From: Burkholderiaceae bacterium
Lineage (GTDB): Bacteria > Pseudomonadota > Gammaproteobacteria > Burkholderiales > Burkholderiaceae_F
Assembly (NCBI GenBank): GCA_035524275.1
Contig: DATKPC010000103.1
Coordinates: 1-55,229, forward strand
DNA length: 55,229 nucleotides
Direction of reading: 5' to 3'
In this document: positions 8,922-38,851 of the stretch, piece after piece
Layout: the number at the start of each line of letters is the position of its first letter
How positions within the stretch are numbered: the first letter of the stretch is position 1
Made by a program: the position numbers and the translations under genes
The notes under the pieces: model-generated
Database searches by the model: none
What the model was told of the DNA's origin: nothing
What the model saw: the letters and a program-made list of their open reading frames with translations, nothing else

Positions 8922-10190
8922 GTGCGTCGCTGGCCGGGGTTCGACGCGGGGGAACGGGCTAACCTGCGGCGCGTGCAACTCGATTTCCTGCCGTCGTGGC
9001 CCCCGGTCTGGCCGAGCATGGTCGCCCTCGGCGTCCTGGCCTTCCTTTCGCTTGCGCTCGGCGAATTCGCGGCGCGCGTGCTGCGCCTGCCGCGGATGCT
9101 GGGCTACCTGGCGGCCGGCGCGCTGTTCGGGGCCGGCGGGCAGGTGCTCGACGGCCTGCAGATCGAAGGCCCGCCGCGGCGCACGCTCGACCTGGCGCTG
9201 GATTTCGCGACCGCCTTCGTGCTGTTCGACCTCGGCCATCGGGTCTCGTTCGGCTGGCTTCGGCGCAATCCGGCGCTGATCGCCTCGAGCCTCGCGGAGT
9301 CGACGGCGACGTTCCTGCTGGGCTTCGCGTCGCTGCGGTGGTGCGGGCTCGCGACGCTGCCGGCCGCGCTGCTGGGGGCCGTCTCGATCGCGACCTCGCC
9401 CGCGATCGTCCTGTCGATCACGCGCGAGCTGCGGACGCAGGGCCAGGTGACCGAGCGCACGCTGCTCCTCACCGCGCTCAACTGCATCTACGCGATCGTC
9501 GTCTCGACGCTGATGCTGGCGTGGGCCCACTTGCAGTACCGCGGGACGCTCGGCGCCTACGTGCTGCAGCCGCTGTATCTCGTCATCGGGTCGGCCGTGC
9601 TCGCGGCGGTCGCGGCGCGCATCCTCGTCGCGGTACTGGCCACGGCGGTCGAGCGCGATCGCGGCGCGCAGATCATGACGATGCTGGCGCTCGTCGCGAT
9701 CGTCTTCGGCGTCGCGCAGGCGCTGCGGCTGTCGCATCTGCTCACGCTCCTGGCGTGCGGCGCGTTCGTCCACATGTTCGACCGGCGGCGCCGGCTCGCC
9801 GGGACGGAATTCGGGGTGATGTCGTCGTTCGTTCTCGTGCTGTTCTTCGCGTTGTCGGCGGCCACCGCCGACTTCGACGCGACCACGCTCGCCTGGGGGC
9901 CGGCGCTCGTCCTGGTCGCCGTGCGGATCGCCTGCAAGGTCGGTGGCGTCGCCGCGTTCGCCCGCCTGAGCGGCGTGCGGACGCGACAAGGGATCTGGAA
10001 CGGCGTCGCGCTGGCGCCGATGTCGACGTTGGCGCTGCTGCTGGCGCGCCAGGTCGGCCTGGCCGACGCCAAGCTGGGCGCGCAGATGCAGTCGGTCCTC
10101 GTCGTCGCCGTCGTCGTGCTGCAGGTCGGCGGCGCGCTGGCGCTCACCCGCGCGTTGCGGGCCACCGGGGAGGCCCGCGGCACGCCATGA
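8922..10190 (+). CDS. Cation:proton antiporter (CPA1/CPA2, Na+/H+ exchanger family) membrane protein, ~390-422 aa.
   Basis: About 11-12 predicted TM helices, with an MLGYLAAGALFG-type N-terminal helix typical of Na+/H+ exchanger family proteins. The alternative start is Met at 9018. The stop overlaps the ybdK start (ATGA). Confidence 0.7.
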   Translation: MRRWPGFDAGERANLRRVQLDFLPSWPPVWPSMVALGVLAFLSLALGEFAARVLRLPRMLGYLAAGALFGAGGQVLDGLQIEGPPRRTLDLALDFATAFVLFDLGHRVSFGWLRRNPALIASSLAESTATFLLGFASLRWCGLATLPAALLGAVSIATSPAIVLSITRELRTQGQVTERTLLLTALNCIYAIVVSTLMLAWAHLQYRGTLGAYVLQPLYLVIGSAVLAAVAARILVAVLATAVERDRGAQIMTMLALVAIVFGVAQALRLSHLLTLLACGAFVHMFDRRRRLAGTEFGVMSSFVLVLFFALSAATADFDATTLAWGPALVLVAVRIACKVGGVAAFARLSGVRTRQGIWNGVALAPMSTLALLLARQVGLADAKLGAQMQSVLVVAVVVLQVGGALALTRALRATGEARGTP

Positions 10191-11335
10191 CCGAATCCCT
10201 GGAATTCAAGCGTTCGAACGCGCTGTCGATGGGCGTCGAACTGGAGCTGCAGGTCGTCGACCGGCGCACCGGCGACCTGACCCGTGGCGCGCCGGACCTG
10301 ATCGCGCTGCTGGCGCGCAAGCCGGTGCCGGGCGAGGTGAAGCCGGAGATCACCGAAAGCATGATCGAGGTCAGCACTTCGGTGCATTCGGCCTACGGCC
10401 CGCTGCTGCAGGAACTGCAGGCGATCCGCTCGGCGCTGACCGCCGCCGCCGACACGCTCGACCTGCACGTCGGCGGCGGCGGCACGCACCCGTTCCAGCG
10501 CTGGTACGAGCGGCAGATCTACGACCGCCCGCGCTTCCGCCACGTCGCCGGCCTCTACGGCTACCTGGCGAAGCAGTTCACCGTGTTCGGTCAGCACGTG
10601 CACATCGGCGTCGAGGACGGCGACCGCGCGCTGAAGCTGCTGCATGCGCTGGCGCGCTATGTCCCGCATTTCATCGCGCTTGCCGCGTGCAGCCCGTACT
10701 ACCAGGGTTCCGATACGGCGTTCGACTGCTCGCGCCTCAATACGGTGTTCGCGTTCCCGCTGAGCGGCCGCGCGCCCTTCGTCACCGACTGGGAGGGCTT
10801 CGAGCGCTACTTCGGCAAGCTGCGCGCGCTCGGCGTCGTCGAGAGCATGAAGGACTTCTACTGGGACATCCGACCGAAGCCGGAGTACGGGACGATCGAG
10901 GTTCGCGTCTTCGACACGCCGCTCACGGTCGACCGTGCGGCCCAGCTGGCGGCCTACGTCCAGGCGATCTGCGCGTTCCTGGCCGACCAGCGCGTCTTCC
11001 CGCAGTCGGAAGACATCTACCTCACGTATTCATACAACCGCTTCCAGGCCTGCCGCTTTGGCCTCGAGGGCCAGCTGATCGATCCGCTCGCCGGCAGTGT
11101 CGTGGCCGTGCACCAGGACGTCATCGCGACGGTGGAGCGCATTCGCCCCTACGCGCGCGCACTGCAATCCGATGCCGCGCTCGACGCGATCGAGCGGATC
11201 GCGCGCGGTGGTGGCAACCATGCGCGCTGGCAACGCAGCGTCTTCCAGCGCACGCGCTCGCTGGCGGAGCTGGTCGGCGAGAGCTGCGAGGCGTGGCGGC
11301 GCGTCGACGCCACCGACGGCATCGCCAAGGGCTAG
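10187..11335 (+). CDS. ybdK: Carboxylate-amine ligase YbdK (glutamate-cysteine ligase family 2), 382 aa.
   Basis: MTESLEFKRSNALSMGVELELQVVD… is the hallmark GCS2/YbdK N-terminus. The family is conserved across the full length. Confidence 0.85.
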   Translation: MTESLEFKRSNALSMGVELELQVVDRRTGDLTRGAPDLIALLARKPVPGEVKPEITESMIEVSTSVHSAYGPLLQELQAIRSALTAAADTLDLHVGGGGTHPFQRWYERQIYDRPRFRHVAGLYGYLAKQFTVFGQHVHIGVEDGDRALKLLHALARYVPHFIALAACSPYYQGSDTAFDCSRLNTVFAFPLSGRAPFVTDWEGFERYFGKLRALGVVESMKDFYWDIRPKPEYGTIEVRVFDTPLTVDRAAQLAAYVQAICAFLADQRVFPQSEDIYLTYSYNRFQACRFGLEGQLIDPLAGSVVAVHQDVIATVERIRPYARALQSDAALDAIERIARGGGNHARWQRSVFQRTRSLAELVGESCEAWRRVDATDGIAKG

Positions 11336-11379
11336 CGCGTTCGCCTGGCGGCGACAAGCCGCGCGCCGCACGTCGAAAA

Positions 11380-12078
11380 CTACGGCGTGCCGGATTCCGA
11401 GGCGGCGTCGCCGCGCGCCGGATTGCCGGCCAGCGGCGGGAGCGGCGCGGCGAAGCGGGTCGTCTCCGCGTCGCGCCAGCAGATGCCCGTGTGCAGCCGC
11501 AGCAGCGCGACCCAGTCCTTGAGCCAGAGTTCCGCCGAAGACTGCGAGCCGTAGGCCACGACGCTCGTCAGGCTCAGCGCGAAGCCGAGCGCGAGCGGGT
11601 TGACCCGCGGATGCGGACGGCCGACGTAGCGCCACGCGAAGATCGAGAACGCGGCGAGCCCGATCGCCAGGCCGATCACGACCTCGGCTTCCGAATGCAT
11701 GTGCAGCACGACGCGTGACGTCGCGACGAGTGCGACCAGCGCGACCCAGCCGCCGAGCCACAGCGGACGCAGCACGCGCGGCGTGTGGGTCGCGAGCACG
11801 AGCGCGATCGTGCCGTAGACGATCGTCGAGCCGCCGACGTGCCCGCTCGGGCTGCGCACCAGCAGCCGCCACGTGGCGCCACACGACAGCAGCGTCAGCT
11901 TGAGGACCGCCAGCGTCGCGAGGCAAAGCACGAGCGCGCCGAGGAAGGCGGCCGCGGCGGCGCGCGATTCGGAGCGCCACAACGTGAACGCGACGACCAC
12001 CGACAGCGGCAGCAGCAGGTCGAGGTCGCCGAAATTCGTGACGAGTCGAAGGAAGTGGATCAGCATCGGGAGGAACAT
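11380..12078 (-). CDS. PAP2-family (phosphatidic acid phosphatase type 2 / lipid phosphatase) membrane protein, ~232 aa.
   Basis: Multi-TM protein with PAP2-like KxxxxxxRP…SGH…SRxxxxxHxxxD-type signature fragments (RSPSGHVGGS…SRVVLHMHSEAEV). The track ORF (351 aa) has an Arg-rich N-terminal extension that is probably not translated. The start is assigned at MFLPMLIHF. Confidence 0.55.
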   Translation of the reverse strand: MFLPMLIHFLRLVTNFGDLDLLLPLSVVVAFTLWRSESRAAAAAFLGALVLCLATLAVLKLTLLSCGATWRLLVRSPSGHVGGSTIVYGTIALVLATHTPRVLRPLWLGGWVALVALVATSRVVLHMHSEAEVVIGLAIGLAAFSIFAWRYVGRPHPRVNPLALGFALSLTSVVAYGSQSSAELWLKDWVALLRLHTGICWRDAETTRFAAPLPPLAGNPARGDAASESGTP

Positions 12079-12260
12079 TAGCCACGCGCGGCTTCCGCAG
12101 CGCACCAAAGGATACCGCATTTGTGTTATTCGGGGGTGATCGAGCCGGCCCCCGGCCGGATGTTCGGATCGCGCCGCGATCCGGCGCGGCGATTCGACGA
12201 CACAATTCCGGTGACGCCGAGCCGGACGTCCAGATGCCTGAGCAAGCCCGTGGAAACGCC

Positions 12261-13784
12261 ATGAGCCTTGAAGTCGAAGTCGACCGGATCCTCGACGCGG
12301 TCGGGGTCGATGCATCGCGCCGTCGCGGCGGGTCCCTCGCGGTGACCTCGCCGATCGACGGCAGCGCGATCGGCGCCGTGGCGCCGGCGACGCCCGCGGA
12401 TGTCGAGGCCGCGCTGCAGGCCGCGAGCGCGGCATTTCTCGACTGGCGGACGGTGCCGGCGCCGCGGCGCGGAGAACTGGTGCGCCGGTTCGGCGACGAA
12501 CTGCGCCGCGCGAAGCGCGATCTGGGCCTGCTGGTCACGCTCGAGACCGGAAAGATCGTCTCCGAGGGCCTCGGCGAGGTCCAGGAGATGATCGACATCT
12601 GCGATTTCGCGGTCGGCCTTTCGCGCCAGCTGCACGGGCTGACGATCGCCTCCGAGCGGCGCTCGCACCGGATGATGGAGACGTGGCACCCGCTCGGCGT
12701 CTGCGGCGTCGTCTCGGCATTCAATTTCCCGGTCGCCGTCTGGGCGTGGAACGCCGCGCTCGCGCTCGTCTGCGGCGATCCCGTCGTCTGGAAGCCGTCG
12801 GAGAAGACGCCGCTCACGGCGCTCGCCGTCGATGCGCTGCTGCGCCGCGCGATCGCGAGCTTCGCTGGCGACGCGGATGCGGTTCCGCCCGGCTTGGCGG
12901 CGCTGCTGGTCGGCGGCCGCGAGGTCGCCGCGCAACTCGTCGACGATCCGCGCGTCGCGCTCGTCTCGGCGACCGGCTCCACCGCGATGGGGCGTGCGGT
13001 CGGGCCGCGCGTCGCGGCGCGCTTCGGCCGGTCGCTGCTCGAACTGGGCGGCAACAACGCCGGCATCGTCCGCCCGTCGGCCGATCTCGACCTGGCGCTG
13101 CGGGCGATCGCCTTCGCCGCGATGGGAACGGCCGGGCAGCGCTGCACGACGCTGCGCCGGCTGTTCGTGGCCGGCGGCATCTACGACCAGTTCATGCCGC
13201 GACTGAAGCGCGCCTTCGCGACGGTCCGGGTCGGGGATCCGCGTGAGGCGGCGACGCTCGTCGGCCCGCTGATCGATCGCGCCGCCGGCGTCGCGATGCA
13301 GGCGGCGCTGGACGAGGCGCGCGCCCTCGGCGGTCAGGTGACCGGCGGCGAGCCGGTCGATCGGGGCGGGCGCGGAACGTACGCGCGGCCGGCGCTCGTG
13401 GAGCTGCCGGCGCAGTGCGGGCCGATGCTGCGCGAGACGTTCGCGCCGATCCTCTACGTCGTGCGCGAGGACGACCTCGAGCGGTCGATCGCGGCGCAGA
13501 ACGCCGTCGGCGCCGGGCTGTCGTCGTGCATCTTCACGCGCGACCTGCGCGAGGCGGAGCGTTTCCTGTCGGCGGCCGGGTCCGACTGCGGCATCGCGAA
13601 CGTCAATATCGGGCCTTCCGGCGCCGAGATCGGCGGCGCCTTCGGCGGCGAGAAGGAGACCGGTGGCGGCCGCGAGTCGGGTTCCGACGCCTGGAAGGCC
13701 TACATGCGGCGCGCGACGAATACGATCAACTACGGCGACGCGCTGCCGCTGGCGCAGGGCGTGCGGTTCGACGTCGAAGGCTGA
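12261..13784 (+). CDS. amaB: Aldehyde dehydrogenase, ALDH7 / piperideine-6-carboxylate (alpha-aminoadipic semialdehyde) dehydrogenase-like, 507 aa.
   Basis: ETWHPLGVCGVVSAFNFPVAVWAWNAALALVCGDPVVWKPSEKTPL closely resembles the antiquitin/AmaB signature. The catalytic ELGGNNAG and the …CTTLRRL Cys are present. Confidence 0.8.
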   Translation: MSLEVEVDRILDAVGVDASRRRGGSLAVTSPIDGSAIGAVAPATPADVEAALQAASAAFLDWRTVPAPRRGELVRRFGDELRRAKRDLGLLVTLETGKIVSEGLGEVQEMIDICDFAVGLSRQLHGLTIASERRSHRMMETWHPLGVCGVVSAFNFPVAVWAWNAALALVCGDPVVWKPSEKTPLTALAVDALLRRAIASFAGDADAVPPGLAALLVGGREVAAQLVDDPRVALVSATGSTAMGRAVGPRVAARFGRSLLELGGNNAGIVRPSADLDLALRAIAFAAMGTAGQRCTTLRRLFVAGGIYDQFMPRLKRAFATVRVGDPREAATLVGPLIDRAAGVAMQAALDEARALGGQVTGGEPVDRGGRGTYARPALVELPAQCGPMLRETFAPILYVVREDDLERSIAAQNAVGAGLSSCIFTRDLREAERFLSAAGSDCGIANVNIGPSGAEIGGAFGGEKETGGGRESGSDAWKAYMRRATNTINYGDALPLAQGVRFDVEG

Positions 13785-24876: not shown

Positions 24877-28050
<3,174 letters not shown>

Positions 28051-28210: not shown

Positions 28211-28762
28211 TTACCCGCCGCCGCGCGCCGCCTCGGCGTCGGCACGTCCGGTGTGGCGGGTTGATACCGCCGCCAGGATGCCGCGCAGCAGGTCGCGCGG
28301 CGGCGGCGGGCAGCCGGGAATCGCGACGTCGACCGGGATCACGTGGGCGATCCGCCCGCGGCAGGCGTAGCTCTCGCCGAACACGCCGCCATCGCAGCCG
28401 CAGTCGCCGACGGCGACCACCAGCACGGGCTGCGGCGCCGCATCGTAGGTCCGGCGCAGCGCGGCCTCCATGTGGCGCGAGACCGGCCCGGTCACCAGGA
28501 GCATGTCGGCGTGCCGCGGGCTCGCGACGAAGCGGATCCCGAGGCCTTCGAGGTTGTAGTACGGATTGTTCAGCGCGTGGATCTCGAGCTCGCAGCCGTT
28601 GCACGAGCCGGCGTCGACCTGCCGGATCGAGAGCGCGCGGCCGACGATGGCGAGCAGCTCGCCGCGGATCCGCGCCTCGTCGCGCCGCCAGGCCTCGTTC
28701 GCCTCCGGCGCGGGCTCGGTCACCAGCCCGACGCGGGCCACCTGTCGCAACAGCTGCCACAT
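28211..28762 (-). CDS. NuoB / HycG-like small subunit of a group-4 [NiFe]-hydrogenase-related complex, 183 aa, retaining [4Fe-4S] ligands.
   Basis: SCNGCE…GDCGCDGG…PGCPP motifs are the NuoB-family proximal-cluster ligands. The start ATG overlaps the stop of the large-subunit gene (TGATG). Confidence 0.8.
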   Translation of the reverse strand: MWQLLRQVARVGLVTEPAPEANEAWRRDEARIRGELLAIVGRALSIRQVDAGSCNGCELEIHALNNPYYNLEGLGIRFVASPRHADMLLVTGPVSRHMEAALRRTYDAAPQPVLVVAVGDCGCDGGVFGESYACRGRIAHVIPVDVAIPGCPPPPRDLLRGILAAVSTRHTGRADAEAARGGG

Positions 28763-30324
28763 CAGAGATCGTGTCCGGAATAGCTGAGGTTGAAGGATTT
28801 GTTGATCAGCGGGAAGTCGGGGACGATGTTGTCGATCACCGCATGCTCCAGCACCGGCCAGTTGCGCCACGACGGATCGCTGAGGTGGCAGCGCCGGATC
28901 GCTCCCGACGGCGCGAGTTGAAGCGCGACGAGGATCTCGCCGCGCCAGCCCTCGACCCATCCGGCGCCGGCGCCGGCGCGCCCGATGTCGCCGACCGTCG
29001 CGAGCCGCGCGCCCTGCGGCAGCCCGCGCGCGATGTCGCGAATCAGCTGCAGCGACGATCGCAGCTCCGCGAACCGGACTTCGGCGCGGGCCGCGACGTC
29101 GCCGGCCGCGGCACTCGCGGCGCGCACCGCGAGCCGGTCGTAGGGCGGATGCGGATGGTCCGCGCGCAGGTCGCGCGCGATGCCGCTCGCGCGCCCCGCC
29201 AGCCCACAGAGGCCCAGCCGGGTCGCCAGCGGCGTCGCGACGCGACCGGTGCCGATGAACCGGTCCTGCAGCCCCGGATGCTCCTCGAAGATCGCATGCA
29301 GCCGCTCGACCTGCGGCTCCAGCGCATCGCATTGGGCGGCGAGGCGAGCGGCGGCGGCGGCGTCGAGGTCGACGCAGGTGCCGCCCGGCACGATGCGGTC
29401 CATCAGCAGCCGATGCCCGAACAGTTCGCCGTTGAGGCGCAGCCAGTCCTCCCTGAGCCGCGAGAATTGGGCCAGGCCGAACGCCAGCGCGACGTCGTTG
29501 GCCAGCGCGCCGAGGTCGCCGAGGTGGTTGGCAACCCGCTCGCGCTCCAGCAGCAGGCCGCGCAGCCAGGCGGCGCGATCCGGGACGGCGACGCCGGTCG
29601 CCGCCTCCAGCGCCATGCAGGTGGCCCACGCGTAGGCCACCGTCGAGTCGCCGCAGGCGCGCCCCGCGATGCGGTGCGCATCGAGCGGCGCGGTGCGTTC
29701 CATCAGCTGCTCGATTCCCTTGTGCACGTAGCCGAGGCGTTCTTCGAGCCGCAGGACCTTTTCGCCGACGACCGAGAACCGGAAATGACCCGGCTCGATG
29801 ATGCCGGCATGCACCGGCCCGACCGCGATCTCGTGGACGCCGTCGCCTTCGACGGTGACGAAGCGGTAGGGCTCCGGCTTCGCCGCCGGGACCGGCGCTG
29901 ATGACTCGCCTTCGCCGCGGCGCAGCGGGAAATAGCCGGCGGGCCACGCGTCATGCCGCAGCCAGGGCCGCTGGTCGGCGCTGCCGGCGGCGACGACGCC
30001 GGCCAGGTCGCGCGCCGCGCGCTGCATCCGGAGCGCCGCTGGGAAAAGCCGTGACACGTCCGGGTAGTCCGGATGCGAGGGCGCGAGCGCGAGCGTGATC
30101 CACGCGAGGCCGCCGGCGAACGCATAGGCCGCATGGACCGCCGGATCGCCTCCTTCCGTCGTTCCGCCCCACAGCGCGACGAGGCGTCCGCTGGCGCGGG
30201 CCGCTTCGGCCGCCGCCGTCCACTCCGCGGCGTCGACCGTGGCGCGCCCGATCGGCAGCGGCGCGTCCGTCGCCTCGAGCGCGATCGCGAGGCCGTCGAT
30301 GCGGTCGAAGCGGGGCGCCGGCAT
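28762..30324 (-). CDS. Fused NuoC-NuoD-like large subunit (HycE/HyfG-like) lacking the NiFe-binding cysteines, 520 aa.
   Basis: N-terminal NuoC-like domain, then a NuoD/hydrogenase large-subunit domain (GPVHAGIIEPGHFRF…LEERLGYVHKGIE). The L1 motif is RACGDS (hydrogenases RxCGxC). The C-terminal L2 is DPSWRNW (hydrogenases DPCxxC). Only 1 of 4 Ni-Fe Cys ligands remains. GGAGG lies 8 nt upstream. The start overlaps the hyfF-like stop. Confidence 0.85.
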   Translation of the reverse strand: MPAPRFDRIDGLAIALEATDAPLPIGRATVDAAEWTAAAEAARASGRLVALWGGTTEGGDPAVHAAYAFAGGLAWITLALAPSHPDYPDVSRLFPAALRMQRAARDLAGVVAAGSADQRPWLRHDAWPAGYFPLRRGEGESSAPVPAAKPEPYRFVTVEGDGVHEIAVGPVHAGIIEPGHFRFSVVGEKVLRLEERLGYVHKGIEQLMERTAPLDAHRIAGRACGDSTVAYAWATCMALEAATGVAVPDRAAWLRGLLLERERVANHLGDLGALANDVALAFGLAQFSRLREDWLRLNGELFGHRLLMDRIVPGGTCVDLDAAAAARLAAQCDALEPQVERLHAIFEEHPGLQDRFIGTGRVATPLATRLGLCGLAGRASGIARDLRADHPHPPYDRLAVRAASAAAGDVAARAEVRFAELRSSLQLIRDIARGLPQGARLATVGDIGRAGAGAGWVEGWRGEILVALQLAPSGAIRRCHLSDPSWRNWPVLEHAVIDNIVPDFPLINKSFNLSYSGHDL

Positions 30325-31790
30325 CAGGAACCTCCGATCAGCTGCGCGGCGCTGCGCCACCATGCGCCGAGGTACGGCGGGACGTAGAGTCCCAGCATCA
30401 GCGCGAGGCCGAGGTGGACGAAGATCGGCAGCAGCGCCGGCGCGTGCGGCAACGCGCGAACGCTGGGCTCGCCGAAGGCCATTTCCTGCACCTTCGAGAA
30501 CACCGCCGCGAACGCGACCGCGAGCGCGAGCAGCAGCAGCGGCGCCGCCCACGGCAGCTCGCGCATCGTGGTCGTCAGGATCAGGAACTCGCTCGCGAAG
30601 ACGCCGAAGGGCGGCATGCCGAGGATCGCGACGGTGCCGACGACGAGCCCCCAGCCGACGGTCGGGTTCGACTTCACGAGGCCGCGGATGGACTCCATCA
30701 GCTGCGTTCCGGCCTTCTGCGCCGCATGTCCGGCCGCGAAGAAGATCGACGACTTGACCAGCGAATGCACGGTCATGTGCAGCAGGCCGGCGAACGTCGC
30801 GACCGGGCCGCCGATCCCGAAGGCGAACGTCATCAGGCCCATGTGCTCGATCGACGAGTACGCGAAGAGCCGCTTGATGTCGCGCTGTCGCATCAGGAAG
30901 AACGACGCGCTGACGACCGACAGCAGTCCGAAGCCGACCATCAGGCTGCCGGCGAGGTGGTTGTGCAGCGCGCCGTCGGCAAGGACCTTGCTGCGCAGCA
31001 CCGCATAGAGCGCGACGTTCAGCAGGAGCCCGGAGAGGACCGCGGAGATCGGCGTCGGGCCTTCGGCGTGGGCATCCGGCAGCCAGTTGTGCACCGGGAC
31101 GAGGCCGACCTTCGTGCCGTAGCCGAGCATCAGGAAGACGAACGCGAGCGAAAGGATGTTCGGTTCCAGGCGGTCCTTGACGGCCTCCAGGTTGCTCCAC
31201 AGCAGCGCGCCGCCGCCGGGCCCGATGACCCGCTCGGCGGCGAGGAACAGCAGGATCGTCCCGAACAGCGCCTGCGCGATGCCGACCCCGCAGAGGATGA
31301 AGTATTTCCACGCGGCTTCGAGGCTGGCGGCGGTCCGGTAGACGCTCACCAGCAGCACGGTCGCCAGCGTCGCGGCCTCCATGGCGACCCACAGGATGCC
31401 GACGTTGTTCGTCGTCAGCGCCAGCAGCATCGTGAACGTGAAGAGCTGGTACATGCTGTGGTAGAGGCGCATCCGCGGCGGCGTCATGCGCCCGTGGTCC
31501 TGCTCGATGCGCATGTAGGGGATCGAGAACAGCGCCGTCGTCAGGCCGACGAAGGCGGTCAGCGCGACCAGGAAGACGTTGAGCGGGTCGATCAGGAAGG
31601 CCTGCCCGAAATGGAAGCCCGGGCCGTCGGCGACGACGCGCGCGACGAGCGCCGCGGCGGCCGCCAGCGTCGCGGCGCTGAAGCCGGCGTTGACGGCCGC
31701 AGCGGCGCGGCGCGCGCCGATCACGCCGAGCGTCGCGGCGCCGGCGAGCGGGATGGCGAGGAGGACGGCGAGGCCGTCGATCTCATTCAT
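30324..31790 (-). CDS. NuoN/NuoM-like antiporter-type membrane subunit (HyfF-like), 488 aa.
   Basis: About 14 TM helices with conserved complex-I antiporter-like core motifs (…WLPDAHAEGPTPISA…). Confidence 0.82.
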   Translation of the reverse strand: MNEIDGLAVLLAIPLAGAATLGVIGARRAAAAVNAGFSAATLAAAAALVARVVADGPGFHFGQAFLIDPLNVFLVALTAFVGLTTALFSIPYMRIEQDHGRMTPPRMRLYHSMYQLFTFTMLLALTTNNVGILWVAMEAATLATVLLVSVYRTAASLEAAWKYFILCGVGIAQALFGTILLFLAAERVIGPGGGALLWSNLEAVKDRLEPNILSLAFVFLMLGYGTKVGLVPVHNWLPDAHAEGPTPISAVLSGLLLNVALYAVLRSKVLADGALHNHLAGSLMVGFGLLSVVSASFFLMRQRDIKRLFAYSSIEHMGLMTFAFGIGGPVATFAGLLHMTVHSLVKSSIFFAAGHAAQKAGTQLMESIRGLVKSNPTVGWGLVVGTVAILGMPPFGVFASEFLILTTTMRELPWAAPLLLLALAVAFAAVFSKVQEMAFGEPSVRALPHAPALLPIFVHLGLALMLGLYVPPYLGAWWRSAAQLIGGS

Positions 31791-32400
31791 CCTTCAGCCT
31801 CTCGAGGTGCTGGATGTCGAGGCTGTCGAACTGTTCGCGGATCTGGAACATGAAGACGCCGAGGATCAGCAGCCCGACGAGGACGTCGAGCGCGATGCCG
31901 AGCTCGACGACCATCGGCATGCCGTAGGTCGCCGCGGTGGCGGCGAAGAACAGCGCGTTTTCCATCGACAGGAAGCCGATCACCTGCGGCACCGCCTTCG
32001 CCCGCGTGATCATCATCATGAACGACAGCAGCACGCACGCCAGCGCGATGCCGAGCGAGCCGCCGGCCACCGACGAGGTCAGGCGGGCGATCGGCGCCGC
32101 GAGGTTGAAGGAGAAGACGACGAGCACGATCCCGATCAGCATCGTCGTCGGGATGTTGATGAGGGTCTCGACGTCCCACTTGACGTCGAGGCGGTCGATC
32201 AGCCGGTGCAGCGCCACCGGCAGCGCGACGACCTTCAGCAGCAGCGTGACGAGCGCCGAGAAGAACAGGTGCGGCTGTCCGGTCGCGCGCGCGACGAGCG
32301 CGGTGGCCAGCGCCAGCGCCAGGCCCTGCAGCGTGAAGAGCCGGATCAGCAGCAGCACGCGGCGCTGCGACAGCATCGCGAAGGCGAGCAGCAGCAGCAC
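31783..32400 (-). CDS. HyfE-like small membrane subunit of hydrogenase-4-type complexes, 205 aa.
   Basis: Six predicted TM helices. Size and position (between the NuoH-like and NuoN-like genes) match hyfE in hyf operons. Confidence 0.65.
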   Translation of the reverse strand: MLLLLAFAMLSQRRVLLLIRLFTLQGLALALATALVARATGQPHLFFSALVTLLLKVVALPVALHRLIDRLDVKWDVETLINIPTTMLIGIVLVVFSFNLAAPIARLTSSVAGGSLGIALACVLLSFMMMITRAKAVPQVIGFLSMENALFFAATAATYGMPMVVELGIALDVLVGLLILGVFMFQIREQFDSLDIQHLERLKDE

Positions 32401-32443: not shown

Positions 32444-33397
32444 TCAGGCTCCCAGCAGCAGGTGGACCAGCATCCCGAGCACCGCGAGCAGGAACGCGGT
32501 GGCGAGGAACTCCGGGACGCGGAAGACGCGCATCTTGGCGCTCGTCGCCTCGACCAGCGCGAGCGCGGCGCCGCCGATCGCGAGCTTCAGCAGCAGCACC
32601 GGGATCGCGAGCACGAGGGCCAGCGGCTCGCCGGCCTCGGCGACGCCCCACGGGAAGAACAGCGCCAGCCCGATGCACGAGTACGCGAAGAGCTTGAGGC
32701 TCGCGGCCCACTCCAGCAGCGCCAGGTGGCGCCCCGAGTACTCCAGGACCAGCGCCTCGTGGATCATCGTGAGCTCGAGGTGCGTCGACGGATTGTCGAC
32801 CGGGACCCGGGCGTTTTCCGCCAGCGACACCATCGTGAAGGCGACGCCGGCGAACGCCAGGCTGGGATAGATCGCGAACTCGCGGTGCGCGAGCGACCCG
32901 ACGATCTGGGTCAGCGACGTCGATTGCGTGATCAGCGACGCGGAGAACAGCACCGTGAGCAGCGCCGGTTCGGCCAGGAAGCCGACCAGCATCTCGCGCC
33001 GCGCGCCGAGCGTGCCGAACGCCGTGCCGATGTCCATCGCGGCGAGCGATATGCACATGCGCGCGACGCTGAAGAGCCCGACGAGCGCGATGGCGTCGGC
33101 CGCCGGCGCCAGCGGCAGATCGGTCGACAGCGTCGGCACGATCCCGCAGGACAGCGCCATGCAGCCGAAGACGACGTACGGCGCGCCGCGGAACAGCGGC
33201 GAGGCGTTGTCGGCGACGACCGCCTCGCGCGCGAACAGCTTGCGCAGCGTCCGGTACGGCTGCAGCAGGCTCGGCGCCGAGCGGTTCAGCAGCCACGCGC
33301 GGCACTGGTTGACCCACCCGCTGAGCAGCGGCGCGAGCAGCAGCGCGAGCGACAGCTCGAGCAGCTGCGCCGCGGCGCCGGTCCAGCTCAGTCCCAT
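32444..33397 (-). CDS. NuoH-like membrane subunit (HycD/HyfC-like), 317 aa.
   Basis: Starts MGLSWTGAAAQLLELSLALLLAPLLSGWVNQ…, typical of the HycD/NuoH family. Its start overlaps the stop of the preceding NuoL-like gene by 8 nt. The track ORF (1088 aa) has a long Arg-rich spurious N-terminal extension. Confidence 0.85.
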   Translation of the reverse strand: MGLSWTGAAAQLLELSLALLLAPLLSGWVNQCRAWLLNRSAPSLLQPYRTLRKLFAREAVVADNASPLFRGAPYVVFGCMALSCGIVPTLSTDLPLAPAADAIALVGLFSVARMCISLAAMDIGTAFGTLGARREMLVGFLAEPALLTVLFSASLITQSTSLTQIVGSLAHREFAIYPSLAFAGVAFTMVSLAENARVPVDNPSTHLELTMIHEALVLEYSGRHLALLEWAASLKLFAYSCIGLALFFPWGVAEAGEPLALVLAIPVLLLKLAIGGAALALVEATSAKMRVFRVPEFLATAFLLAVLGMLVHLLLGA

Positions 33398-35394
33398 GAT
33401 CGGATCACCATCAGCATCGCGAGCAGCGTCAGGAAGCTGTAGAGCAGGTAGACCGAGATGCGGCCCTGCTGCAGCGCGGAGAACCGGCGGGCGATGCGCT
33501 CGACCACGGCGGCGATCGGCAGGTACAACGCGTGCCAGGCATGGTCCTCGATCGTCACGCGATAGCGCGGCTGCGCGTCGAACGGCGTCGGCAGGACGCG
33601 CTCGAGGCGGAAGAACGGCTCGAAGATCTGCCGGATCGGCTGCCCGAAGCCCTCGGCGGTGTCCTGCATGCGCGCGCCGAGCGCCCCGAAGCCGCAGTCC
33701 CACGGCGCGCTGCGCCGCAGCTTTTCGTGGAAGGCCCGGCGCACGACGAGCCAGGCCGCCGCGCAGCCGCCGCCGACGACGACGAGAAAGACGAGCGGCC
33801 CGTAGCTGGCGCGCGCAACCGAGGTGGGCACGAGCAGCAGCCAGCCGTGCGCGCGTGCCGCCTCGCCGATGCCGGATCCGACGAGCACGCGGGTCACCGG
33901 GTCGATCGCCGCGATCAGCGGGACCGGGAAGAGGCCCACCGCGAGCCCGCAGGCGACGAGCCAGGCGAGACCGGCGCGTTCCCACGGCCGGGCGTCGCGA
34001 GCCTGTGCCAGTGCCGGCTCGCGCGGCTGGCCGAGGAAGACGACGCCGAAGAACTTCACCATCACGTAGCCGGCCAGCGCCGAGACGAGCGCCACCGCGG
34101 CGGCCCCGACGGGCACGAGCATGCTCAGGTACGCCGGTGGCAGCTGCGGGCTGAAGAGGAAACCCTGCAGCAGCAGCCACTCGGAGACGAAGCCGCCGAG
34201 CGGCGGCAGGCCGGCGCTCGCCAGCGCGCCGAACAGCATCGTCCAGGCGACCCACGGCATCGGCCGCACGAGCCCGCCGAGCCGGCCGAGGTTGCGCTCG
34301 CCGGTCGCATGCAGCACCGAGCCGGTGCCGAGGAACAGCAGGCTCTTGAACAGCGCATGGCTGGCGACGTGGTAGAGCGCGGCCGTGAGCGCGAGCGCGG
34401 CCGGGACGACCATGCCATGGGCCTTGAAGAGGATCGCGAGCCCGATGCCGGCGAGCAGCAGGCCGATGTTCTCGATCGAGGAATAGGCGAGCAGCCGCTT
34501 CATGTCGGTCTGCACCGCGCTGAACAGCACGCCGAAGATCGCCGTCAGGAGCCCGAGCGCGAGCAGCAGCGCGCCCCACCACCAGGGCTGCATCGGGAGC
34601 ACGTCGAACGTGATTCGCAGCAGCCCGTAGATCGCCGTCTTCAGCATCACGGCGCTCATCAGCGCCGAGACCGGCGACGGCGCCGCCGGGTGCGCTTCGG
34701 GCAGCCAGACGTGCAGCGGCACGGCGCCGGCCTTCGCGCCGAAGCCGGCGAGCGCGAGCAGGAACGCGGCGCCCGCCCAGGCCGGCGCGAGCTGCTGCGC
34801 CCGCAGGTTGGCGAACGTGTAGTCGCCGGTGTTGGCCTGCAGGACACCGAAGCACAGCAGCAGCGCGATCGCGCCGACGTGCGCCATCAGCAGGTAAAGG
34901 AAGCCGGCGCGCCGGATCTCGGCGATCCGGTGGTTCGCGATGACGAGGAAGTAGGACGAAAGCGCCATGGCCTCCCACAGCACCATGAACGCGAAGGCGT
35001 CGTCGGCGACGAGCAGCAGCGCCATGCTGGCGAGGAACGCGTGGTATTCGAGGCACAGCAGGCCCGGCGGCGTGCCTTCGCCGTGGCGGAAGTAGCCGGC
35101 CGCGAACGCCGAAATGCCCACCGTGGTTACGCCGAGCACGGCGAGGAAGAACGCCGAAAGGCTGTCGAGCCGCAGGTGGAACGGCAGCTGCGGCAGCCCG
35201 ATCGGCAGCACCGCGACCTCCGGCGTCGCGAAGATCGCCGACCCGGCGACGACGGCCAGCGCGAGGCCGCCCGCGGCGCCGAGCGGGAAGAGGACCTGCG
35301 CGACGATGCGGAAGCGGCGCAGCCACGCCAGCCCGAGGAACCCGATCACCAGCCATGCGGCGGCGATCGCGAGGATCCAGTCGAGGTGGAGCAC
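33388..35394 (-). CDS. NuoL-like antiporter-type membrane subunit (HyfB/HycC-like), 668 aa, GTG start.
   Basis: About 16-17 TM helices with conserved NuoL/HyfB core (…WLPEAHPAAPSPVSALMSAVMLK…). It is the first structural gene of the operon. Confidence 0.85.
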   Translation of the reverse strand: MLHLDWILAIAAAWLVIGFLGLAWLRRFRIVAQVLFPLGAAGGLALAVVAGSAIFATPEVAVLPIGLPQLPFHLRLDSLSAFFLAVLGVTTVGISAFAAGYFRHGEGTPPGLLCLEYHAFLASMALLLVADDAFAFMVLWEAMALSSYFLVIANHRIAEIRRAGFLYLLMAHVGAIALLLCFGVLQANTGDYTFANLRAQQLAPAWAGAAFLLALAGFGAKAGAVPLHVWLPEAHPAAPSPVSALMSAVMLKTAIYGLLRITFDVLPMQPWWWGALLLALGLLTAIFGVLFSAVQTDMKRLLAYSSIENIGLLLAGIGLAILFKAHGMVVPAALALTAALYHVASHALFKSLLFLGTGSVLHATGERNLGRLGGLVRPMPWVAWTMLFGALASAGLPPLGGFVSEWLLLQGFLFSPQLPPAYLSMLVPVGAAAVALVSALAGYVMVKFFGVVFLGQPREPALAQARDARPWERAGLAWLVACGLAVGLFPVPLIAAIDPVTRVLVGSGIGEAARAHGWLLLVPTSVARASYGPLVFLVVVGGGCAAAWLVVRRAFHEKLRRSAPWDCGFGALGARMQDTAEGFGQPIRQIFEPFFRLERVLPTPFDAQPRYRVTIEDHAWHALYLPIAAVVERIARRFSALQQGRISVYLLYSFLTLLAMLMVIRSWD

Positions 35395-35421
35395 GGCCGA
35401 CGCCTGCGGGAAGCCGGCGCC

Positions 35422-35622
35422 TCAGCGCGGGCGCGCGCCGCGCGCCGCGCTCGCGAGCCACGCCGGCAGCTTGCGGCCGTCGGCGTGGGCCACGATGTAT
35501 TCGCGGATCAGCTGGCGCACGACCTGCGACGGCGTGAGGTCCTGCGCGGCGCAGATCTCCTCGAAGAGCTGCTTCTTCCGCGGATCGATGAGGAGTGTCA
35601 GCCGGGCGGTCTTGTTTTCCAT
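35422..35622 (-). CDS. Small ribbon-helix-helix (CopG/Arc/MetJ-like) DNA-binding protein, 66 aa.
   Basis: MENKTARLTLLIDPRKKQLFEEICAAQDLTPSQVVRQLIREYI has a beta-strand/helix/helix pattern typical of RHH regulators. It is encoded immediately upstream of, and co-directional with, the hydrogenase-like operon. The track ORF is 28 codons longer. Confidence 0.55.
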   Translation of the reverse strand: MENKTARLTLLIDPRKKQLFEEICAAQDLTPSQVVRQLIREYIVAHADGRKLPAWLASAARGARPR

Positions 35623-35632
35623 CGGAGGTCTT

Positions 35633-35680
35633 CGGGCGGTCGGGCGGTCGGGAAAGCGTCGGGCGGTCGGGAAAGCGTGT
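35633..35680. promoter_or_regulatory. Tandem direct repeats (GTCGGGCGGTCGGGAAAGC ×2 plus a partial third) in the divergent promoter region between the RHH gene and the arginase gene.
   Basis: Seen directly: …ttcgggcggtcgggcggtcgggaaagcgtcgggcggtcgggaaagcgtg… It is a candidate operator array for the RHH protein (inference). Confidence 0.4.
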
Positions 35681-35781
35681 GCACCGCATGGTAATGATAT
35701 TTTCATTCAAGGCAAATAGGATGCGACTACCTGGCGCCGCGCCCCTGGCCGGCCGCGGGCGTTCCGGGTTACATTGCGCCG

Positions 35782-36702
35782 ATGAAACGTCCCGTGAGCC
35801 TGATCGGGGCGCCGACCGACATCGGCGCCGGCGTGCGCGGCGCGTCGATGGGCCCCGAGGCGCTGCGGGTCGCGAGCATCGGGCCGCTGCTGGAGGCCCT
35901 GGGCCTCGACGTCGTCGATCGCGGCAATCTCTCCGGCCCGACGAATCCCTGGCTTCCCGCGGTCGATGGCTACCGCCACCTGCCGCAGGTCGCCGAGTGG
36001 GCGCTCGCGGTCCACGACGCCGTGCTTGCCGAGCTGCGGCTCGGCCGGCTGCCGCTGCTCCTCGGCGGCGACCACTGCCTCGGGATCGGATCGATCGCCG
36101 CGGTGGCGCGGCATTGCCGCGACGCCGGGCGCAAGCTGCGCGTGCTATGGCTCGACGCGCACGCCGACTTCAATACGAGCCAGCTCACGCCGAGCGGCAA
36201 TATCCATGGCATGCCGGTGGCGATCCTCTGCGGGCACGGGCCGCGGCCGCTCGTCGAGCTCGGCGGCACGGTGCCGGCGCTGCATCCGTCGTGGGTCCGG
36301 CAGATCGGGATCCGCAGCGTCGATCCCGGCGAGAAGCACTTCGTCCACGAAGTCGACCTCGAGGTGTTCGACATGCGCTTCATCGACGAGATGGGCATGC
36401 GACACGCGATGGAACTCGCGCTGGCGACGATGGACCACGGAACGCACCTTCACGTGAGCTTCGACGTCGACTTCCTCGATCCGGACGTCGCGCCCGGGGT
36501 CGGCACCACGGTTCGCGGCGGGCCGACCTACCGCGAGGCGCAACTGTGCATGGAGATGATCGCCGACACCGGGCTCCTCGGGTCGCTCGACGTCGTCGAG
36601 CTCAACCCGGCGCTCGACCTGCGGAACCGCACCGCCGAAGTGGCGGTCGATCTCGTGCAGAGCCTGTTCGGGAAGTCGACGCTGCTGAGGAAGCGCAGGT
36701 AG
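35782..36702 (+). CDS. rocF: Arginase (ureohydrolase family), 306 aa.
   Basis: GGDHCLGIGSIAAVA…DAHADFNT…SFDVDFLDP Mn-binding motifs. Closest to arginase rather than agmatinase by overall pattern. Confidence 0.85.
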   Translation: MKRPVSLIGAPTDIGAGVRGASMGPEALRVASIGPLLEALGLDVVDRGNLSGPTNPWLPAVDGYRHLPQVAEWALAVHDAVLAELRLGRLPLLLGGDHCLGIGSIAAVARHCRDAGRKLRVLWLDAHADFNTSQLTPSGNIHGMPVAILCGHGPRPLVELGGTVPALHPSWVRQIGIRSVDPGEKHFVHEVDLEVFDMRFIDEMGMRHAMELALATMDHGTHLHVSFDVDFLDPDVAPGVGTTVRGGPTYREAQLCMEMIADTGLLGSLDVVELNPALDLRNRTAEVAVDLVQSLFGKSTLLRKRR

Positions 36703-36890: not shown

Positions 36891-37742
36891 CTAGCCCGCC
36901 GGCTTCTCCTTCGCCACGGCGCCGCGGATCTCGCGCAGTTTCTGCTTGACCATCGCTTCGTTGGCGCCGCCGATCCGCATCATGATCTTCTGTCCGGCGG
37001 AGCGCGCCTCGAGCTGCGGGTCGGCGTACTCGAACATCGCGTGCGGCGCGACGAGCGCGACGGGCGGCACGACGTCGGGCGCCGCGAGCAGGTCGTCGAG
37101 CACTTCGACGAGCCTGTCGTTGAAGTACCCGTGCGGATAGCCGAGGTCGCGATACGCCTGCTGAAACAGCGGATAGAAGCGGATGTAGGCCGCGACGAGC
37201 TTGCCGGTATCCAGTGTCGATGCGATCTTCGCGTAGGTCGCGTACCGCGCGGCGTTTTCCGCGCCGACATACGTCGCGTCGCCGTTCTGCGCGACGACGA
37301 AGCGGCCGCCGACGGGTCGAACGGGCCAGGTGTCGACGACGGCGCGTGCCCGCGGCAGGTTGTCGAGCGTCGCGACGATCCGGTGGATCACCTGGTCCGG
37401 CTTCAGGAAGCCGTGCAGCGCGTGCGCACCGAAGACGCCGCCGAGCGCCTCCGCGATCGCCGCATCGCTCTGGTCGAGGCCCGGCAGCGCCGCGGCGGCC
37501 GGGGGCACTTCGATCGGATGCTGGATCGGCGCCTCGGCCGGCGCGGCGGCGGGCGGCGGCGCCTCCGCGGCCGGCGCCGCTGGCGGTGCCGGTGGCGCGA
37601 CCGCCACCGGCGCCGGGGCCGGCTGCCGCTGCAGCCAGTAGTACCAGCCACCGAGCCCGCCGGCGGCAGCAATGATCAGGACCCACCAGACGGCCGGCTT
37701 CTCGATCAGGCGTTCCATGCGCTGCTCCTCCATCCTCGTCAT
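36891..37742 (-). CDS. DUF3014-like protein with an N-terminal TM anchor and a Pro/Ala-rich linker, 283 aa.
   Basis: N-terminal hydrophobic helix (PAVWWVLIIAAAGGLGGWYYW), a PA-rich low-complexity stretch, then a conserved C-terminal domain. The start could be any of three in-frame Met (37742, 37733, 37718). Confidence 0.55.
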   Translation of the reverse strand: MTRMEEQRMERLIEKPAVWWVLIIAAAGGLGGWYYWLQRQPAPAPVAVAPPAPPAAPAAEAPPPAAAPAEAPIQHPIEVPPAAAALPGLDQSDAAIAEALGGVFGAHALHGFLKPDQVIHRIVATLDNLPRARAVVDTWPVRPVGGRFVVAQNGDATYVGAENAARYATYAKIASTLDTGKLVAAYIRFYPLFQQAYRDLGYPHGYFNDRLVEVLDDLLAAPDVVPPVALVAPHAMFEYADPQLEARSAGQKIMMRIGGANEAMVKQKLREIRGAVAKEKPAG

Positions 37743-37775
37743 TCCCGGCCGCGCGCGACGTCGCCGCGACCGCCC

Positions 37776-38651
37776 TTATCGCCGATGCGCGACGGCGGTC
37801 CGGATCGCGGCCACGGTCTCGCTCACGATCCGGTCCGCGCCGACGCGGCCGAGTTCCGCGCTCGCGCGGCTCGGATCACCATAGACCCCGTCGGCGCGCC
37901 CGGGTTTCGGCGTCCGCTGCAGCATGTCGCTGCGCACCGAGCCGGGGTCGACCGCCAGTTGCAGCGACGTGTCGGCGAGGCCGGCGTGTGTCCCGATCTC
38001 GGCGCTGCCGTAGCCCTGCGAACGCAGCCAGTCGGCGAACGCCGCGTCGCTCGCCCGGTAGTACGCGGCAGGCGCATGCGCGAACGCGGCGCGCGGACCC
38101 GGCGACGCGCGCCAGGCGCGATTGAGGCGCTCGGCGACGCGCTCGAGGTCGGCCTGGTAGCCGCCGTGGTCGCCGAGGAACACGACGTCGAGGAATCCGG
38201 CCGACTTCAGGCTGCGGCCCGCCGCCTCGAGCGTGCGCTCGAACACGTCGTCCGGAACGCTCAGTGTCCCCGGGAAGCGCATGTGGGCTGCGGGCGGTTC
38301 GATCGAGCCCTCCGGAACGTACGCGATCACCGGGGCGACGATCGCATTGCCGAGGTCGCGCGCGATGCGCTCCGAGAGAACCTTGACGCGCGCATTGTGC
38401 TTGCCGAGCGCTATCGCCGGCCCGCTCTGCTCGGTGCCGCCGACCGGCACGATGGCCGTCGTCGCGCCGGCGGCGATTCGTGCGCGCAGCTCGGTCCAGG
38501 TCAGGTCCTCCAGCAGCACGCTGGCGCCCGGCAGAGGCGCTGCCGGATCGGCCGTGCGCGTCGCCGAACCCGCGCCGAATGTCGCGCACGCCCCGCCGAT
38601 CGCAAGCGCGGCCGCCGCGAGGCCTGCGGCCGCGCCACGTCGAATTCGCAT
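37776..38651 (-). CDS. Creatininase-family (creatinine amidohydrolase-like) protein with a signal peptide, ~291 aa.
   Basis: Signal peptide MRIRRGAAAGLAAAALAIGGACA, then a creatininase-fold signature (…PVGGTEQSGPAIALGKHN…GDHGGY…). The track ORF includes a 34-codon Arg-rich leader that is probably untranslated. Confidence 0.65.
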   Translation of the reverse strand: MRIRRGAAAGLAAAALAIGGACATFGAGSATRTADPAAPLPGASVLLEDLTWTELRARIAAGATTAIVPVGGTEQSGPAIALGKHNARVKVLSERIARDLGNAIVAPVIAYVPEGSIEPPAAHMRFPGTLSVPDDVFERTLEAAGRSLKSAGFLDVVFLGDHGGYQADLERVAERLNRAWRASPGPRAAFAHAPAAYYRASDAAFADWLRSQGYGSAEIGTHAGLADTSLQLAVDPGSVRSDMLQRTPKPGRADGVYGDPSRASAELGRVGADRIVSETVAAIRTAVAHRR

Positions 38652-38851
38652 GCGACCGATTCTACCGGCGGGTCCGCGCGGCCTCGCCGGCGCCGCGGGC
38701 GGGGCGAGACCCGCTCCGCGGTCCGCCGCGCGTCGTCGACCCGGCGCCGTCAACCGGCTCGGGCCCCCTGCGTTAAAGTTAGCACTGCTTGGGGGACGTC
38801 AAAGGCAGACGAACCGAGGCACCAACTCGACTAACTCCAGAGAGAGAGACG

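Follow-up and report, generated by a model that had tools for sequence, protein, structure and literature searches.

A contig of 55,229 nucleotides from a Burkholderiaceae bacterium (DATKPC010000103.1 of assembly GCA_035524275.1; this whole stretch of DNA is referred to as the window) raises the question of what a predicted ribbon-helix-helix (RHH) protein of only 66 residues does at the head of an operon for a respiratory-complex-like assembly, and through which DNA element it acts. The six genes that follow the RHH gene encode a set of group 4 hydrogenase/complex I-like subunits of the Ehr type, and an arginase gene lies divergent from it across a spacer of 159 nucleotides (Table 1). Complexes of the Ehr type are widespread, are related to complex I and to group 4 hydrogenases, have an unknown function, and are defined by a large subunit without the CxxC ligand motifs of the NiFe centre (PMC10284858). 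A preliminary description of the locus took two tandem copies of a GC-rich 19-mer, GTCGGGCGGTCGGGAAAGC, for the operator of an autoregulatory switch at a promoter region shared with arginase. The analysis presented here indicates that the protein, a member of the family RHH_9, probably regulates itself and serves as a local repressor of adjoining Ehr or SulP transporter genes, using an AT-rich array at positions 35686–35717 and not the 19-bp repeat.

Judged by its sequence, the 66-residue reading frame is a genuine and strongly conserved RHH gene, as had been proposed. Its translation begins MENKTARLTLLIDPRKK (complete protein, MENKTARLTLLIDPRKKQLFEEICAAQDLTPSQVVRQLIREYIVAHADGRKLPAWLASAARGARPR) and matches Pfam family PF19839, RHH_9, with an E-value of 2.7e-33 and a score of 114.1 bits, where the cut-off is 23.4; the match starts at the first residue of the protein and spans profile positions 1–61 of 65. 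The protein has 3757 database homologues, the best 120 of which are 61–95 residues long, share 73–100% identity with the protein, and all contain PF19839. By contrast, the match to RHH_1/CopG is sub-threshold (E = 0.023), as is that to RelB (13.4 bits versus 22.4), and neither Pfam nor NCBIfam matches the protein to the NikR family. An alignment of 24 homologues contains 31 invariant columns, among them T5, A6, R7, T9 and L11 of the predicted DNA-reading strand. The invariance of these residues predicts a conserved DNA target. The motif R-x-L-P-x-W-L near the C-terminus is conserved beyond the RHH core and, together with an extra helix formed by residues 54–62, is a candidate for the binding of a signal or a partner.

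The AlphaFold2 model of the protein (predicted local distance difference test score 83) has an extended segment at residues 1–13 followed by helices at 14–27 and 31–45 and by the additional C-terminal helix; DSSP assigns no strand in this monomer model, whereas proteins of the RHH superfamily are obligate dimers with paired strands that enter the major groove. The best matches of the model among PDB structures, identified using Foldseek, are ORF56, the DNA-binding domain of CopA(SO), CopG and Arc. The top six matches are all RHH proteins, either repressors or DNA-binding domains of antitoxins, with target-normalised TM-scores of 0.69–0.85. Their E-values are weak, 0.27 at best, in keeping with the small size of the fold (about 45 residues). 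A search of PDB sequences with the family profile identified no solved structure that is close to RHH_9. The TALE repeat proteins at the top of that search are not homologues, because their scores are sums of many weak repeat matches with individual E-values above 400. The helix-loop-helix junction of RHH_9 residues 19–35 (35518–35568, minus strand), LFEEICAAQDLTPSQVV, resembles the TALE repeat junction LLPVLCQAHGLTPEQVV, which is probably a chance likeness or a convergent helix-capping motif.

An AT-rich element is shared by the upstream regions of nearly all loci compared. Expectation-maximization motif finding on 81 regions upstream of RHH_9 genes produced a 24-nucleotide motif, which is present in 78 of them whatever the neighbouring genes. 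The array in the window reads ATTTGCCT-TGA-ATGAAAAT-ATC-ATTACCAT on the minus strand (35717–35688) and is composed of three AT-N4-AT units with a period of 11 bp. AT dinucleotides at motif positions −7/−6, 4/5, 10/11, 15/16 and 21/22 are 82–100% conserved among the aligned sites. The autocorrelation of AT-rich blocks reaches 0.47 at a lag of 11 and 0.42 at a lag of 22, compared to a background of about 0.25, and Tandem Repeats Finder (TRF) independently detected period-11 arrays in eight loci. The element is partly dyad-symmetric, forming clean inverted repeats (ATGTTAAT-N3-ATTAACAT) in some loci and direct repeats in others, and the number of AT-N4-AT units varies from three to four. A scan of the window with the position weight matrix of the motif identified a single site of at least 12 bits, the one in the array. 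Related loci amounting to 818 kb contain 103 sites of at least 16 bits, of which 101 are located within 140 nucleotides upstream of an RHH_9 start; because the matrix scores upstream regions that also served to train it, the independent part of this result is the absence of sites elsewhere.

The array overlaps two promoter-like hexamers, and positions 17–22 of the motif have the consensus TAWMAT, with A21 conserved at 100% and T22 at 96%. The transcription start predicted from the alignment would be near 35680–35682 on the minus strand, giving a leader of about 59 nucleotides. An extended reading frame of 94 residues starting at 35706 was rejected, since the Pfam match begins at its Met29 and its upstream ATG belongs to the conserved operator motif; that start is also upstream of the predicted transcription start. 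The element was also considered as an ArgR-type box serving arginase, an assignment that was dropped because the element accompanies RHH_9 in loci without arginase.

The genes that surround RHH_9 point to what the array may control. A scan of one genome per species identified more than 571 loci encoding RHH_9 relatives, and the closest 80, mostly from Betaproteobacteria with additional ones from Allochromatium and Competibacteraceae, were assigned to arrangements by tblastn with proteins of the window and by Pfam. RHH_9 is directly upstream of and co-directional with EhrB in 30 of the 80 loci (median gap 28 nucleotides), divergent from EhrB in 15, and downstream of the Ehr small subunit gene in five; the other 30 have no Ehr genes within 6 kb. 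A DauA-like SulP gene, with Sulfate_transp and STAS domains, is immediately divergent from or downstream of RHH_9 in 26 of these 30. Ehr genes thus adjoin RHH_9 in 50 of the 80 loci, SulP in 32, either or both in 76, and both in six, although the family as a whole may show other frequencies than these closest 80 of more than 571 loci. The four loci with neither comprise two truncated contigs and two of full length. RHH_9 is a conserved companion of Ehr, and the operon-head position, which the preliminary description had recognised in the window and regarded as non-standard, is the commonest arrangement within this clade. An initial single-linkage clustering of neighbouring reading frames was muddied by spurious overlapping frames in GC-rich DNA and was replaced by the targeted searches.

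Since the residues of the predicted strand are invariant and the AT-rich array is the only conserved non-coding partner of the family, binding of RHH_9 to the array is the simplest model. Tandem sites are often used by RHH proteins, among which Arc, Mnt and CopG occupy one DNA face as dimers of dimers. RHH_9 dimers would similarly occupy successive 11-bp units, which are about one helical turn apart and hence on one face of the DNA. The bound protein would cover the −35-like TTGCCT and the −10-like TACCAT and exclude RNA polymerase, according to the occlusion logic of Arc, Mnt, CopG and MetJ; the position of the array thus suggests repression rather than activation. Occlusion of the promoter would control the RHH_9 gene together with co-transcribed or divergent Ehr or SulP genes. 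In the window, RHH_9 would most likely repress its own promoter as a multimer and hence also the six-gene operon of the NiFe-less Ehr complex that is presumably transcribed with it. Autoregulation through a tandem-repeat operator, the core of the switch proposed for this locus, is plausible, with the AT-rich array in place of the 19-bp repeats.

Several observations weigh against RHH_9 acting as a repressor at the array, in addition to the shared training set of the matrix and the restricted sample of loci. The promoter hexamers are weak, and the promoter assignment comes from comparative alignment only, since a strict scan for sigma-70 promoters and terminators called no promoter and one weak terminator-like hairpin. 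A Shine-Dalgarno sequence is not recognisable before the RHH start codon of the window (CCGAAGACCTCCG-ATG). The duplicated 19-mer, which is perfectly conserved in four assemblies, could still serve a local function, and a literature search on PF19839/RHH_9 found no paper that mentions the family. Some conserved columns of the motif are merely −10 and −35 positions, and its half-sites AATGTTA and TAACATT resemble Zur/Fur-type boxes, so that another regulator is possible.

The last two points carry the alternative that survives best. The AT-rich element may belong to a different regulator, from the Fur/Zur family or otherwise, or be a conserved promoter, or both, in which case RHH_9 would have other targets or would not regulate itself. 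The likeness to the half-sites of Zur and Fur extends to the consensus TGATAAT...ATTATCA from motif finding. However, the spacing in the AT-rich element is two nucleotides longer than in Fur/Zur boxes, and its period is 11 bp and not 6. The element stays with the RHH_9 gene in four different gene contexts and is practically absent from the rest of about 870 kb, a distribution that suits a local autoregulator better than a global regulator. This alternative is considered unlikely, while retaining appreciable weight.

Much less probable is an operator function of the 19-bp repeats, to which RHH dimers of dimers would bind in an autoregulatory switch shared with the arginase promoter. The repeats themselves are real: the 19-mer occurs twice in tandem and is accompanied by the additional unit that had been described as a partial third copy. 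Their layout is A-AB-AB, where A is TCGGGCGG and B is TCGGGAAAGCG, and they lie 17–55 nucleotides upstream of the RHH start codon; tandem sites are common among RHH proteins. Allowing up to three mismatches, the window contains only these two copies of the 19-mer, while 0.06 are expected, and none of 100 shuffled sequences contained two or more. The 159-nucleotide intergenic region is identical in three independent assemblies of the same species obtained from different samples (L087–L089; related loci are denoted by L numbers). Therefore, the repeat is not an assembly artefact and is fixed. About 22 tandem arrays with TRF scores of at least 50 are present in the GC-rich window; because short tandem repeats are so frequent, the presence of this one is by itself no sign of function. 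The 19-mer is absent from 84 other related loci, despite the invariance of the predicted DNA-contacting strand, and a search allowing up to four mismatches returned just three unrelated matches. Moreover, a separate conserved array, the AT-rich one, is directly beside the repeats, and arginase is not a conserved neighbour. The reading frame is conserved and the repeats are not, the opposite of the pattern, repeats persisting without the frame, that had been named as the refutation of the proposal.

The position of the repeats within the leader indicates how they may have originated. The AT-rich motif starts at −87 relative to the ATG in the window, whereas its median start is −63.5 in the co-directional (class a) loci and −55 in L003 and L006. 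The leader of the window is about 30 nucleotides longer than those of its nearest co-directional relatives, and in a MAFFT alignment L003, L006 and L033 have a gap of about 30 nucleotides precisely at the repeats. One 19-nucleotide copy and one 8-nucleotide unit add up to 27 nucleotides, which accounts for the excess. In the predicted leader the repeats extend from about +5 to about +43, on the downstream side of the conserved promoter-like element. The absence of the 19-mer from the related loci and the extra length of the leader are the reasons for reading the repeats as a recent event: they look like a slippage-type duplication in the 5′ leader that became fixed in the species without acquiring a conserved role. 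The duplication may still influence leader length or translation locally. No single-copy leader was found in a close relative: the nearest different species (P0002, locus L085, and P0003, locus L090) have the divergent arrangement, and their leaders cannot be aligned. The leader RNA is C-rich and less structured than its shuffled versions (z = +2.8), for which reason a riboswitch or attenuator was dropped as a candidate; an Rfam scan of 35300–35900 detected no family, its sole output being a meaningless sub-threshold match to a snoRNA. A different lineage-specific repeat, ten tandem heptamers CGCCCAT, is present in L071 about 60–130 nucleotides upstream of RHH_9, just upstream of the AT-rich operator.

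The least likely alternative, that RHH_9 is not primarily a transcription factor but the remnant of an antitoxin or a small protein that partners the Ehr complex or the STAS domain of SulP, takes its appeal from the annotation of some homologues as RelB/DinJ-type antitoxins, from the weak RelB matches, from the conserved C-terminal motif and helix, and from the tight linkage to genes of membrane proteins, and it is opposed by the strong RHH-family match, the DNA-binding RHH proteins among the structural neighbours, the conserved repeat-structured element preceding the gene, and the absence of any conserved small toxin-like reading frame next to RHH_9 in the 80 loci.

RHH_9 resembles the small (about 45–66 residues) strand-helix-helix repressors CopG of plasmid pMV158, Arc and Mnt, and its model superimposes on CopG and Arc with root-mean-square deviations of 1.1–2.5 Å over 42–48 columns. 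The predicted RHH_9 operator likewise overlaps the putative promoter of its own gene and has subsites one helical turn apart. By contrast, RHH_9 is encoded on the chromosome at the head of a respiratory-complex-like operon and not in a plasmid or phage module, and it is distinguished by three to four AT-N4-AT units at 11-bp intervals and by the conserved C-terminal extension. ORF56 of the Sulfolobus plasmid pRN1 (PDB 2k9i) is the best Foldseek match (probability 0.96, 29% identity over 48 columns) and the only RHH protein matched by sequence in the PDB and NCBIfam, below threshold (17.7 bits versus 50 in NCBIfam). However, ORF56 is an archaeal copy-control protein that has neither a C-terminal extension nor a link to Ehr or SulP. 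MetJ represses through tandem met-boxes. It thus reads short direct repeats whose number varies between promoters, as is predicted for RHH_9, although the units read by MetJ measure 8 bp, compared to 11 bp for RHH_9, for which there is no sign of a co-repressor. NikR also combines an RHH DNA-binding domain with hydrogenase-type physiology and carries a C-terminal nickel-binding domain; RHH_9, with only 66 residues, has no nickel domain, and the Ehr large subunit cannot bind NiFe. The hyf and hyc systems of Escherichia coli also have dedicated regulators within or beside a Hyf-type operon, HyfR and FhlA, which are large, sigma-54-dependent and formate-responsive activators. In the window, this place is taken by a 66-residue RHH protein at the 5′ end of an operon whose large subunit lacks CxxC.

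The stop codon of the RHH gene and the GTG start of EhrB are separated by 27 nucleotides, and the RHH gene is presumably co-transcribed with the Ehr genes. The 520-residue large subunit contains six cysteines and no CxxC motif, which justifies the label Ehr; its N-terminal site reads RACGDSTVAY and its C-terminal site DPSWRNW. In the small subunit, all four cysteines characteristic of the proximal 4Fe-4S cluster are retained (C54, C57, C121 and C151). The Ehr operon is followed by a gene for a large PAS/GAF/HisKA sensor kinase (24877–28050, minus strand), which could be a second layer of control. A gene for a 1388-residue GAF/PAS protein is convergent to RHH_9 in L085, the nearest other species (9227–13393).

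On the other side of the spacer, the divergent arrangement with arginase is present as described, but the pairing is not conserved. The tblastn search detected arginase in none of the 80 related loci, and the gene is present only in the same-species contigs L087–L089. The juxtaposition of arginase and RHH_9 is therefore specific to the lineage and peculiar to the species. A DUF3014 gene and a creatininase-family gene adjoin arginase (36891–38753, minus strand), and the three genes look like a small metabolic cluster for guanidino-type nitrogen compounds that is unrelated to the Ehr locus elsewhere.

Table 1 Features of the RHH_9–Ehr locus in the window (positions in the 55,229-nucleotide stretch).
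Feature	Position	Strand	Remarks
RHH_9 (PF19839) gene, 66 aa	35422–35622	minus	predicted ribbon-helix-helix DNA-binding protein, first cistron of the operon
AT-rich operator-like array	35686–35717	minus	conserved; core 24-nt site 35686–35709; position weight matrix score 21.0 bits
−35-like hexamer TTGCCT (putative)	35710–35715	minus	aligns with conserved TTGCTT of class-a loci
−10-like hexamer TACCAT (putative)	35688–35693	minus	16 nt after the −35-like hexamer; aligns with TAACAT in relatives
GTCGGGCGGTCGGGAAAGC, two perfect tandem copies	35639–35657 and 35658–35676		100% identical, TRF score 80
Additional 8-nt unit TCGGGCGG ("partial third copy")	35632–35639		TRF, period-8 row
EhrB / HyfB-like antiporter-type subunit	33388–35394	minus	NCBIfam NF005086 "hydrogenase 4 subunit B", E = 4e-268
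HyfC/NuoH-like	32444–33394	minus	Ehr-like operon
HyfE-like	31783–32400	minus	Ehr-like operon
HyfF-like	30324–31790	minus	Ehr-like operon
NuoCD-like large subunit (fused NuoC/D), 520 aa	28762–30324	minus	without CxxC
NuoB-like small subunit	28211–28762	minus	Ehr-like operon
Arginase gene	35782–36702	plus	TIGR01229, E = 4e-81

The loci of relatives contain additional arrangements. The SulP gene encodes a protein of about 560 residues, for which the best NCBIfam match is DauA, below threshold, with BicA weaker. It is downstream of RHH_9 in L013, L018, L022, L026 and L057, convergent in L046, L051 and L061, and divergent in L016, L029, L036, L040, L044, L064 and others. The two full-length loci with neither Ehr nor SulP have an HNH endonuclease or IS1595-type transposase gene beside RHH_9 (L002, 4464–5054; L019, 6250–6783), which suggests that they hold rearranged or mobilised copies. 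A methionyl-tRNA synthetase gene, metG, ends about 55–60 nucleotides before the RHH_9 start in L013 (96–2174) and L026 (24–2003), the only two loci in which Pfam confirmed it; L008, L018, L022, L027, L048, L052, L057 and L060 belong to the same group, in which the operator falls directly after metG. Two RHH_9 paralogues apparently flank the Ehr operon in Thiobacillus (L069 and L073 versus L046, L051 and L072), one divergent from EhrB and the other about 1.4 kb downstream of the small subunit gene, with an AT-rich element at each. A Rhodocyclaceae contig shared by L081 and L005 carries, about 1–2 kb from RHH_9, a DabA (PF10070) gene and after it three Proton_antipo_M genes (L081, 275–6340). This cluster adjoins a SulP/STAS fragment, and DabA was confirmed in that contig alone; at the corresponding position, eight other Rhodocyclales loci carry a gene with about 30% identity to EhrB. 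The metagenomic contig of L084 encodes a type II CRISPR-Cas system (Cas9 fragment, Cas1 and Cas2; 1–2710) about 5 kb upstream of the RHH_9–Ehr operon, which is probably incidental.

The RHH gene is an annotated member of an existing, uncharacterised Pfam family, and its product is probably of the RHH autorepressor type. The association of RHH_9 with Ehr and SulP and its putative 11-bp operator appear to be undescribed. Literature searches for links between RHH/CopG proteins and hyf-like operons, and for hyf genes in Thiobacillus, found nothing relevant. The AT-rich element at 35686–35717, and not the eye-catching GC-rich repeat, is the relevant target for binding and reporter experiments. A conserved RHH protein and a recognisable operator that travel with Ehr offer a concrete route to learning when Ehr is expressed. 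Furthermore, since the same protein alternatively accompanies a DauA-like SulP gene, Ehr and SulP may be functionally connected.

In Acidithiobacillus caldus, clusters of hyfBCEFG are reported to adjoin genes for carbon fixation and a beta-carbonic anhydrase gene (PMC3826726). This context, together with the SulP and DabA neighbours of RHH_9, leads to the speculative proposal that Ehr functions in inorganic-carbon, anion or pH homeostasis. It is conceivable, though doubtful at present, that RHH_9 is a dedicated, autoregulated and locally acting regulator in Betaproteobacteria and some Gammaproteobacteria that unites Ehr, the DauA-like SulP transporter, and the Rhodocyclales cluster of DabA and antiporter subunits. 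If so, Ehr complexes would belong to anion, inorganic-carbon or pH homeostasis and not to hydrogen metabolism. In that case RHH_9 and the operator would provide an experimental handle on the signal that induces them.

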